8,237 nt of DNA. Source: Candidatus Odinarchaeia archaeon. GTDB taxonomy: Archaea; Asgardarchaeota; Odinarchaeia; Odinarchaeales; Odinarchaeaceae. Below are positions 3,111 to 5,423 of the stretch, one piece after another (position 1 is the stretch's first letter; the number at the start of each line of letters is the position of its first letter). The notes under the pieces were generated by a model. That model worked only from the letters and a program-made list of their open reading frames with translations. It had not been told where the DNA came from and ran no database searches. The stretch lies in NCBI GenBank assembly GCA_029856525.1, contig JAHQXC010000059.1, forward strand, positions 1 through 8,237. The letters run 5' to 3'. A program made the translations under genes and the position numbers.

Positions 3111-3986
3111 TCACAATCCTTTAAATTGCTCTGCGATGAGGGGGGCTACTGAAACTAAACTGGTTTCTGAGGGTATGGTGTCTGTGCCTATAATTTCAGC
3201 GGCTCCGGCGGAGAGTATTTTAGATTTAGCTTCACCTATGAGGATTGTATGCGTGGCGGCAACGTAGACGCTTCCACCCCCTTGGTTTTTAATCATTTGA
3301 ATAGCTTTAATCATGGTCCCCCCTGTACTTATAATATCATCGACGATTACCGCATCACGTTTTTTAACATTAAGCTCTTTGTAATCCATTTTAATCTCGC
3401 CTGTATCTTTATCCCTGAATTTATCTAAGCTTACATATTCTGAATCTAGGATTTTAGCCACGGTTTCAGCTCTGTGAATAGCTCCATCATCAGGTGCGAT
3501 TACAAGGGGGTTTGACATTTTCTTCTTCTTGAAATAATCTCCGAAAAGAGGCATCGCACTTAAATCTTTAGCTTTAATCTTAAGATGGTTTAAAACCTTA
3601 GGCTCATGTATGTCGATTGTATATAATTCGTCAACTCCAAGTTTTTCTATTATTTCCTCGATAACTTTAATGCTTAAAGGCTCCCCTTTCTTAAACTGCT
3701 TATCCTGCCTGGCATAAGCTAAATACGGTACGACTACCCTCAATTTTTCAGGGTTCATTTGTTTAACAGCGTCTATTAAAAGAAATAATTGAATCAGGTT
3801 TTTATCCTGCGGGTTATATGTGGATTGAATTAATAAAACATCTCTGCCTTTTAAATCCGCATCGATTCTAACATATGTTTCCCCGTCGGGGAAATCTTTG
3901 AAGCTCACAGCAGCGACTTCACTGTTTAGTAGACGCGCTACTTTTACACCAAGTATTTGTGAGGCAGGTCCGGGTATGACTATCAT
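3111..3986 (-). CDS. prs: Ribose-phosphate pyrophosphokinase (PRPP synthetase, archaeal type)
   Basis: FPDGETYVRI, PYLAYARQDK.F..GE, IDIH, APDDGA, K.R...GEI and the PRPP-binding VDDIISTGGTM motif. Confidence 0.97.
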   Translation of the reverse strand: MIVIPGPASQILGVKVARLLNSEVAAVSFKDFPDGETYVRIDADLKGRDVLLIQSTYNPQDKNLIQLFLLIDAVKQMNPEKLRVVVPYLAYARQDKQFKKGEPLSIKVIEEIIEKLGVDELYTIDIHEPKVLNHLKIKAKDLSAMPLFGDYFKKKKMSNPLVIAPDDGAIHRAETVAKILDSEYVSLDKFRDKDTGEIKMDYKELNVKKRDAVIVDDIISTGGTMIKAIQMIKNQGGGSVYVAATHTILIGEAKSKILSAGAAEIIGTDTIPSETSLVSVAPLIAEQFKGL

Positions 3987-3990
3987 AAAC

Positions 3991-3996
3991 TCACCT
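3991..3996 (-). promoter_or_regulatory. Ribosome-binding site of prs (AGGTGA)
   Basis: The - strand reads AGGTGA-GTTT-ATG. Confidence 0.75.
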
Positions 3997-4063
3997 TAAC
4001 TAATTTATCATTTAAAGGAAAACTGTCCAGTCTTCGATTATAGAATTAACTTGTTTTAGCTGT

Positions 4064-4157
4064 GTGAACTACCCTCTCTATCGGATGGGGTTTCCTGTTT
4101 TAATGATGGAGCTTGCTGGTGTTTCGACCGATGGAGGCTCCGTCTCAGCAGGCGTCT
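4064..4157 (-). ncRNA. TnpB reRNA/omegaRNA-like scaffold (orphan, partly degenerate)
   Basis: ACGCCTGCTGAGACGGAGCCTCCATCGGTCGAAACACCAGCAAGCTCCATCATTAAAACAGGAAACCCCATCCGATAGAGAGGGTAGTTCAC. It contains nested CCTG/CAGG and GGAGC/GCTCC stems, a GGT-C-GAAA-C-ACC hairpin and a terminal hairpin, the layout expected for the RNA overlapping the tnpB 3' end. Confidence 0.6.
4078..4155 (-). pseudogene. tnpB: Last 25 codons plus stop of a deleted tnpB gene
   Basis: Translates as TPAETEPPSVETPASSIIKTGNPIR*, resembling the recalled archaeal TnpB tail TPVETEPL...ASSVVEAGSP.R*. Upstream in this frame there is no NAA.NI motif, no ATG, and a TGA at 4201-4203. Confidence 0.6.
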
Positions 4158-4181
4158 TTATTCTTTTTGAAGATTGGAAAC

Positions 4182-4196
4182 TATAAATACTTTTCG
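4182..4196 (-). promoter_or_regulatory. Putative archaeal BRE-TATA promoter (CGAAAA-G-TATTTATA)
   Basis: Purine-rich BRE immediately upstream of an 8-bp TATA-like box. Standard spacing predicts a start site at about 4155-4160. Confidence 0.55.
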
Positions 4197-4364
4197 ACTT
4201 TCACCCAGCCGATAAAGTTAAATAATTTTACCATGATAGAGGCTTCCCCAGCGGATCATCTCATCTACTCTTTCTCAAATTGAATTAGAGGTTTAAAGCT
4301 ATATCATCAATTATTAAATATAGGAGGCTACTTTACATAATAGTTATAATACTGGTGGTTTCAA

Positions 4365-5423
4365 GTGGTATATCTTGTGAATGGTAGAAGGGTTAAATTC
4401 GGTTTAGAGCTTCTTCCTAACGGCGATGTTAAAAAACCATATGAGTTAGTATTCGAATATGCTAGAATCGCTGATAAGTGGTTTGATAATATTTGGTTAA
4501 CTCATCACCCTTGGAATGCTGATCCTTTTACTACAGCCGGTTACATGGCTTCTATTACAAAATACACAACTATTGGTTTAGGAGCCACCAATCCTTTCGT
4601 GATACCCCCGGTATATATAGCTGAGACAAGCGGAACTTTATTTCGACTCTACTCTAAGAGATTTATTTTAGGAGTTGGAGCCGGGGACCCGGAGTCTTTA
4701 GACTATCTCGGAATTAAAAGACCCCCTAAATTAATTAAATATTTCAGGGAGGCGATATCCGAAATCCGGGATTTACTTTCAGGTAAACAGGTTCGCGGGA
4801 GAAGATTCTCTTGGATTCACTCTGAGGAGAATGGGGAATTTTTCAGCCCTAAAATTTTTATAGCTGCACAGGGGCCTATGATGCTACGGTTAGCAGGTGA
4901 AATAGGTGACGGTGTTTTAATCAATGCGTCTCACCCTCTTCAAATAAGAAAAGCTATAGAGAAAGTTGGGGAAGGGGCTAGTAGAGTCAACCGGGCTGCG
5001 CTCCCTGAAATAGTAGCCTACACCTGTTTTTCAATGGATGATAACGTTGAGAGAGCATTAGAGGCGTGTAAGCCGCCAGTAGCCTATATAGTTTCAGGAG
5101 CCAGCAACGAAATTCTAAGAGACTTCGATATCGATATGGAGAAAGTTGAGCGGATAAGATTATCTCTCAGGAGTAGGAGATTCGTTGAAGCGTTTAATTT
5201 AGTGGATGAGCGGATGATTGAATCTTTTTCTATTTCAGGTGACCCTGTTAATTGCCGCCGTAAAATAGAGGAGCTTGTTGAAATAGGTGTAGAACAGGTT
5301 GTTTTAGGATCTCCTTTAGGTGTTGAATCTGAGATGTTCTGGCGTGGTAGAGTTGTATATTCTAAGGAAACTATTCTAAGAAAAATTATAAAAAAGATAT
5401 TATGTAAATATCAGCGGGGATAG
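4365..5423 (+). CDS. F420-dependent luciferase-like oxidoreductase, Mer (methylene-H4MPT reductase)-like paralogue
   Basis: KFGLELLP, G..TNPF, LGVGAGD, IFIAAQGPMML..AGEIGDGVLINASHP, VAYTCFS and VLGSPLG closely follow Mer. GGTGGT SD at 4354-4359 precedes the GTG at 4365. The N-terminal substrate motif diverges, so no gene symbol is given. Confidence 0.8.
   Translation: MVYLVNGRRVKFGLELLPNGDVKKPYELVFEYARIADKWFDNIWLTHHPWNADPFTTAGYMASITKYTTIGLGATNPFVIPPVYIAETSGTLFRLYSKRFILGVGAGDPESLDYLGIKRPPKLIKYFREAISEIRDLLSGKQVRGRRFSWIHSEENGEFFSPKIFIAAQGPMMLRLAGEIGDGVLINASHPLQIRKAIEKVGEGASRVNRAALPEIVAYTCFSMDDNVERALEACKPPVAYIVSGASNEILRDFDIDMEKVERIRLSLRSRRFVEAFNLVDERMIESFSISGDPVNCRRKIEELVEIGVEQVVLGSPLGVESEMFWRGRVVYSKETILRKIIKKILCKYQRG

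Follow-up and report, generated by a model that had tools for sequence, protein, structure and literature searches.

The stretch of DNA analyzed here, 8,237 nucleotides of contig C109 from a Candidatus Odinarchaeia archaeon (hereafter the window), holds a structured repeat in the 378-bp intergenic gap between prs and a luciferase-like oxidoreductase gene, which raises the question of what this repeat is and whether it still works as a guide RNA. A preliminary description had taken positions 4064 to 4157 for a lone orphan TnpB right end with its omegaRNA scaffold and had seen in it the best candidate for an undescribed RNA-guided system. That right end with its scaffold is real, but it represents only the right-hand two thirds of an element that spans 4064 to 4217, and instead of a lone locus we found many copies of a PATE/MITE family that includes both ends of the transposon. 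The minus-strand element in the window is very probably a palindrome-associated transposable element (PATE), i.e. a protein-less deletion derivative of an IS200/IS605-family, tnpB-only (IS1341-like) transposon. Its parts and the adjoining genes are listed in Table 1.

Table 1. Positions of the element, its parts and its surroundings in the window.
Feature	Position	Strand	Basis or remark
Whole non-autonomous IS200/IS605-type element (PATE), family A	4064..4217	-	nhmmer match, family profile positions 1-184, C109:4222-4064
TTTAA target / transposon-adjacent motif (TAM)	4218..4222	-	directly 5' of left end; host DNA, outside element
Left-end remnant (CTTTATCGGC...GGGTGAAAGT)	4197..4217	-	alignment of 19 copies; same left-end layout upstream of intact tnpB
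BRE/TATA-like box (CGAAAAG-TATTTATA)	4182..4196	-	kept in nearly all copies; predicted native tnpB promoter
Remnant of last 25 tnpB codons	4081..4155	-	stop TAG 4080-4078; translation, BLASTP, tblastn; overlaps RNA scaffold
omegaRNA scaffold, four helices P1-P4	4072..4153	-	covariance model match 4064-4153, 94 bits (training sequence)
P1 (CCUG/CAGG)	4152-4149/4097-4094	-	
P2, 8-pair helix GACGGAGC/GCUCCAUC, GGAGC/GCUCC inside	4144-4137/4112-4105	-	
P3 hairpin, CGAAAC loop	4132-4115	-	
P4 terminal hairpin	4090-4072	-	
Right-end terminus UAGUUCAC	4064..4071	-	last scaffold bases before guide; right-end cleavage site; near-invariant among relatives
Putative guide (flanking DNA, ACAGCTAAAACAAGTTAATT)	4044..4063	-	predicted from known TnpB guide build
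prs (ribose-phosphate pyrophosphokinase)	3111-3986	-	
Luciferase-like oxidoreductase gene	4365-5423	+	aRF1 next after

Three genomes of the same genus keep the synteny of prs and the luciferase-like gene and have no element at this site. In one of them (G001) the sequence in minus orientation runs uninterrupted (...ATTATTTAA/ATAGTTAAAC...), while the window reads ...ATTATTTAA/4217..4064/ACAGCTAAAAC.... This comparison shows that the 154-bp element was inserted exactly 3' of TTTAA without target duplication; both of its ends are fixed by the empty site, and its sharp boundaries are common to 19 copies with unrelated flanks. Precise insertion without duplication of the target is a hallmark of peel-and-paste IS200/IS605 transposition. 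Neither BLAST nor a covariance model detected any family A copy in the three same-genus genomes, and among contigs of the source sample over positions 3600 to 4700 neither a joint across the element nor an empty-site contig was seen, a second run giving no coverage. Two other candidates at this locus were discarded. A 56-aa plus-strand ORF (4113-4283) was treated as spurious because it lacks a Pfam match and lies partly within the repeat, and a C/D-box small RNA (plus-strand ATGATGA) was rejected, the matching D box being absent by eye. A tRNA scan of the window found none, and an Rfam scan of the window at E values up to 10 matched no family.

The assembly from which the window comes (G000; 1.32 Mb, 127 contigs, 38% G+C, 93% completeness) contains 19 full-length and about 10 partial copies of family A, as determined by BLAST and profile searches, and the window stretch matches 20 or more further places in this genome with E values down to 1e-57. 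Copy number and differing flanks had been proposed as a check on the first reading of the locus, and the flanks of the copies are indeed unrelated. The full copies are 159 to 209 bp long and 70-93% identical, and all copies are intergenic; the single one that overlaps an ORF of at least 90 aa does so with an ORF that is probably spurious. TTTAA directly precedes 16 of the 19 copies, and the shared boundaries are TTTAA/CTTTATCGGC... at one end and ...GGGGTAGTTCAC at the other. Most copies carry a left-end hairpin (CCCCCTGC-GAAA-GCTGGGGG) about 17 nt inside the left end, and a right-end hairpin (CCCCATCC-GATA-GGGAGGGG) lies 8 nt inside the right end, a near-terminal layout that is typical of IS200/IS605 ends. 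No inverted termini were visible in family A (CTTTATCGGC... at one end and ...GTAGTTCAC at the other). The right end points toward a gene start in nine copies and toward a gene end in nine, i.e. there is no orientation bias.

Related cassettes were also seen elsewhere. Orphan copies without tnpB occur in other Asgard families (L033 1501-1715 in G007, L071 in G142, L099 in G018) and carry TTTAA, the left-end hairpin, the TATA box, the scaffold and UAGUUCAC; one of them lies in G007, downstream of the dihydroorotate dehydrogenase genes. In the sediment metagenome from which the genome derives (run X1), the summed contig depth over window positions 4081 to 4117 was about 70 times that of the single-copy flanks, a value that is not a copy number. 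This 37-nt stretch, the most conserved of the scaffold, is probably common to many elements and organisms of the source community.

The descent of the element from tnpB is evident at both ends. At the right end, the window aligns over about 90 nt to the 3' ends of tnpB genes, including Pfam-confirmed ones, and the TnpB-like DNA similarity begins at about 4153-4156, close to the limit of 4156 given in the preliminary description. The 25-codon peptide recognized there as a TnpB tail translates to TPAETEPPSVETPASSIIKTGNPIR and is a real tail. In BLASTP, the window frame is identical at 20 of 42 positions to residues 333-374 of the L102 TnpB, which comes from a Methanomethylicales MAG and is confirmed by Pfam (pairwise E=4e-7; pattern TPAETEP...PASSII.G.P). 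The right-end motif is likewise present as described, on the minus strand, its terminal ...GGGTAGTTCAC ending at 4064. In 30 of 400 genomes of the phylum, counting G000, as well as in further archaeal phyla, tnpB elements and orphan copies end in a near-invariant UAGUUCAC. With the right half of L051, one of the family A copies, as the BLAST query against these 400 genomes, the terminal module GCAGGAAGCCCC-hairpin-GGGGUAGUUCAC was found in 30 of them, again including our own, and in nine cases it closes an ORF of 343-491 aa, several of which are Pfam-confirmed TnpBs. An exact-pattern scan of 185,579 species genomes recovered the longer right-end motif in Bathyarchaeia, Methanomethylicia, Methanocellales, Thermoproteota and Asgard MAGs. 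Five of these matches are attached to ORFs of 376-386 aa, two of which Pfam confirms as TnpB (L102 and L103; L103 and L080 are the same contig). Relatives of the scaffold that are linked to tnpB were found, and their homology supports the earlier assignment of the locus to a TnpB right end with an omegaRNA scaffold. The search for a parent element in JGI metagenomes gave zero matches to the exact right-end pattern and seven matches to the left-end/promoter pattern, all by chance.

At the left end, the full-length relatives L115, L102 and L086 have, upstream of the tnpB start codon, TTTAA, ...CGGCGGGAAG, a hairpin, GATGAAAGCCGAAA and a TATA box, the latter lying between the left-end hairpin and the start codon. 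The order in the PATE is the same, and past the TATA box it continues with GGATAAAGATG, which in the full genes is tnpB coding sequence immediately behind the RuvC-III motif. Therefore, the element consists of a left end, tnpB promoter included, to which the 3' end of tnpB has been fused, in agreement with the internal deletion by which the nuclease was said to have been lost. In the window element the BRE/TATA-like box is found about 25 nt upstream of helix P1. This box is nearly palindromic, and the direction of the promoter and the strand of the RNA are predicted solely from homology to tnpB elements.

The stems named in the preliminary description, CCUG/CAGG, GGAGC/GCUCC and a hairpin with a CGAAAC loop, are all present on the minus strand. 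Taken alone, the window sequence proves little, as single-sequence folding was not more stable than that of shuffles (z=-1.08 for the minus and -1.32 for the plus strand) and no Rfam family matched, so that comparisons carry the argument for the stems. RNAalifold applied to the raw MAFFT alignment of all copies returned almost no consensus structure, and the structure was accordingly set by hand from a wider comparison. Applied to 21 sequences (15 own copies and, from other genomes, five orphan copies and one tnpB-linked end), the four-helix model has 78.7% of cells paired as compared with 30-46% in slid controls. Both sides have changed in 13 pairs, and covariation reaches a score of 0.195, the value in shuffles being 0.150±0.010. 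For P4, which is likely also the right-end hairpin bound by TnpA, 24 sequences from the phylum gave 93.2% of cells paired, five of eight pairs changed on both sides, and a covariation score of 0.401 versus 0.212. The helices are thus conserved, with the reservation that the model was drawn from the same sequences as those tested and that the copies are related. Counts of G.U against C.A (50 vs 60) did not discriminate the strand. A covariance model built from family A copies ends its match exactly at 4064 and assigns 60-98 bits to the copies, the window copy, a training row, being third best. Right ends that adjoin real tnpB genes and were not used for training (L102, L106, L100, L115, L095; L080 is a training row) scored 63-98 bits. 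The scaffold in the window resembles the omegaRNA, or reRNA, of IS200/IS605 elements of the ISDra2 type, reportedly described in 2021 by Karvelis and colleagues and by Altae-Tran and colleagues, in that it overlaps the tnpB 3' end and stops at the right-end boundary, with a guide that would be taken from the flank and a target motif equal to the insertion motif. It matched no Rfam model.

The putative 20-nt guide (4044..4063) has no other full match in its own genome, and TTTAA followed by this flank is the empty donor site. The same holds for the family: the 20-nt right flanks of 18 copies match only themselves, the 19th copy being too near a contig end. Guides that match nothing but their own flanks give no indication of retargeting as in TldR, a nuclease-dead TnpB with retargeted guides that was reportedly described by Wiegand and colleagues in 2024. 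The window element is like TldR loci in being a guide-RNA locus apart from transposition, but differs from them in that its guide matches nothing else in the genome and no protein gene is adjacent, and in family A both transposon ends are still recognizable. The suggestion that the locus is a stand-alone guide for a TldR-like protein is thus not borne out; the left-end hairpin is also lost from this copy. As the preliminary description had stated, there is neither tnpA nor tnpB, nor any TnpB-like gene, within the window, and any use of the scaffold would have to be in trans.

A partner for such use was sought in the same assembly. With five TnpBs of the matching clade as queries, tblastn matched only the tail relics of PATEs, and a TnpB of the cognate clade was not found, a negative result that holds for an assembly that is 93% complete and has a contig cut-off of about 2 kb. 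The shortest contig has 2,021 bp, and family A copies are cut off by the ends of three contigs, so a collapsed 1.4-kb parent element could be missing from the assembly. The partners that are resident comprise an IS605 element on C44 (tnpA and tnpB), a tnpB-only element at the end of contig C93 and a tnpB fragment on C121, and these TnpBs are 22-28% identical to other TnpBs with the terminal module. On the family model the C93 right end reached 23.5 bits and that of C44 gave no match. The C93 right end has a GGAAGC-hairpin-GUAGCUCAC terminal module in common with family A, and the C93 TnpB keeps RuvC-like D, E and D motifs (IDRG, VMENL, NRDLD) as judged by eye only. The C44 element follows TTTAA and has a left-end start similar to that of family A but a different right end.

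Several observations on the resident elements and their derivatives are recorded here in their own right. The C44 element (C44:8180-9899, L022) is the only IS605 of the genome with a Y1 tnpA. Its TnpB has Gly at the position of the expected RuvC-II glutamate (IVVGNL as compared with IQMEDL of a solved Cas12f-like protein), and from its sequence it may be nuclease-dead or have the catalytic residue relocated. A 209-bp family A copy (C119:677-885) is about 75% like the C44 IS605 left end (C44:8000-8180) in its left half, with a common TTTAA/CTTCAT... start and a common AGCTGATA.TCTTATAAAAGATAT block, while its right end is that of family A; by sequence it looks like a hybrid element. There is a second family of deletion derivatives (C125:1-230, C71:10583-10760, C29:3820-3970, C77:29807-29927 and C78:10429-10531) with C93:26009-27305 as the parent; the pieces show 90-100% protein identity to the C-terminal tail of the C93 TnpB, and the C125 piece is a fusion of the first 20 codons with the last 49. 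The right-end terminus ...GTAGCTCAC is exactly where contig C93 stops.

The TnpBs related to the window scaffold are short (376-401 aa) compared with the ISDra2 type. In those of 376-386 aa that own the scaffold (L100, L102, L103 = L080, L106, L115), the CxxC...CxxC zinc ribbon is apparently absent; L103, for example, reads ...RGTSQEYKHGKLDRDFNASLNI, and PF07282 is absent or truncated. These scaffold-owning proteins could be a compact clade spread over several archaeal phyla. The intact elements compared (L102, L106, L100, L115, L080/L103 and L095, from Methanomethylicia, Bathyarchaeia and Asgard MAGs) are like the window element in TTTAA, left-end layout, P1-P4 and the UAGUUCAC/UAGCUCAC end. 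They differ in that they encode TnpB, of which the window element has the last 25 codons only.

From these comparisons a course of events can be proposed, in which the element inserted by peel-and-paste 3' of TTTAA between prs and the luciferase-like gene, an internal deletion having joined the left end and its own tnpB promoter to the last ~25 tnpB codons. The tnpB tail region and the right end encode the omegaRNA scaffold, and a transcript, if made, would comprise the ~90-nt scaffold and, behind it, a guide copied from the flank. Together with a matching TnpB, such an omegaRNA would guide cleavage of the donor site once it is emptied (TTTAA plus flank), and recombination would then restore the element. 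Retention by donor cutting has already been shown for bacterial IS605 elements; for the window element, transcription, TnpB binding and cutting are predictions from homology.

The window copy itself has lost the left-end hairpin through a 25-nt deletion and also does not have the 5' hairpin (GGGG..CCC) that is present in longer variants and in full genes, while its P1-P4 are largely intact. This copy is most likely a stranded relic, because the left-end hairpin needed by TnpA is missing, no TnpB of the matching clade was found, and the guide has no target as long as the element is in place. That it works as a guide RNA now is, in our estimate, unlikely. A copy on C24 (C24:6326-6485) is 91% identical to that in the window and has both deletions in common with it, at a different TTTAA site. 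A deletion common to both copies is unexpected if the hairpin is needed for mobilization; mobilization without the hairpin, repeated microhomology deletion and gene conversion are possibilities.

Against the relic reading, the element could be an active stand-alone guide-RNA gene with its own promoter, loaded in trans by a TnpB encoded elsewhere (an unassembled cognate or that of C93) and thereby keeping the PATE family. Promoter, scaffold and right end are conserved over ~20 copies, the window copy is among the best scoring, the ~1.4-kb parent could have been dropped with the contigs under about 2 kb, as the three contigs ending inside copies also allow, and the C93 element offers both the RuvC-like motifs and the related terminal module; furthermore, omegaRNAs of PATEs are held in the published view to act with TnpB in trans (PMC10055086). 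However, the tblastn search found no cognate-clade TnpB, the resident right ends fit the family model poorly (C93) or not at all (C44), and the identity of 70-93% among copies with many broken pairs is as expected for neutral decay. Moreover, canonical excision is not open to the window copy, and a target for its guide would thus never arise. We therefore regard this explanation as unlikely.

It is considerably less probable that the element has been exapted as a promoter or leader, its outward promoter adding to prs transcription or yielding a TnpB-independent small RNA. The right end faces the prs 5' end at a distance of 78 nt in the same direction, and the AT-rich promoter regions of archaea often contain TTTAA targets. 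On the other hand, the even split of family right ends between gene starts and gene ends (9 vs 9) argues against such a role, a TATA-like box belonging to prs itself (TTTAAAT, about 4016-4010) still lies between its start codon and the element, and the same-genus relatives keep the synteny without an element there. Nothing in the family A copies points to retargeting of guides or to selection for promoter function. We give similarly little credence to a further scenario in which the parent TnpB clade is truly gone, the ~20 cassettes have been taken over by the distantly related C93 TnpB or as small RNAs or portable promoters, and the hairpin-less form has spread to two sites; if true, such spread (window and C24) would imply a mobilization route outside the IS608 model. 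Finally, that family A consists of structured repeats or small-RNA genes of non-transposon origin, with a chance likeness to TnpB right ends, can practically be dismissed, for while there was neither an Rfam match nor a single-sequence folding signal, this reading is contradicted by the unbroken homology with tnpB 3' ends in both DNA and peptide, the left-end homology to tnpB elements, the TTTAA-specific insertion without duplication and the covariance-model scores of tnpB-linked right ends.

As a decayed PATE, the window element belongs to a known class. PATEs were defined in Haloquadratum walsbyi as IS605-type derivatives without inverted repeats or duplications, with near-terminal palindromes, some of which arose by core deletion (Dyall-Smith et al., 2011; PMC3119063), and they have been seen in Geobacillus stearothermophilus (Meers et al., 2023; PMC10055086). 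According to the latter work, PATEs in many cases encode omegaRNAs for which TnpB must be supplied in trans. Family A is like them in its lack of terminal inverted repeats and of target duplication, in its near-terminal hairpins and many copies, in being too short for a transposase and an internal deletion of an IS605-type element, and in carrying the omegaRNA region, with TnpA and TnpB needed in trans. In contrast to known PATEs, family A resides in an Asgard archaeal host with a 1.3-Mb genome, its deletion leaves about 25 nt between its own BRE/TATA promoter and the scaffold, no TnpB of the matching clade was found in the assembly, and in the window copy the left-end hairpin is lost. As protein-less PATEs with a guide scaffold, and PATEs as omegaRNA carriers, are already published (PMC3119063; PMC10055086), the window locus is no new RNA-guided system, as it had first been taken to be.

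Taken together, the finding explains an intergenic repeat as a decayed mini-transposon. The fusion of promoter and scaffold is predicted to form a natural minimal omegaRNA expression cassette, and the ~90-nt scaffold and TTTAA are found together with compact TnpBs (~380 aa) across several archaeal phyla, some of them apparently thermophilic; such a compact TnpB/omegaRNA pair could be tried as a small genome-editing tool. For the organism itself, the copies represent a species-specific burst of TnpB-derived PATEs in a 1.3-Mb genome, absent from three genomes of the same genus.
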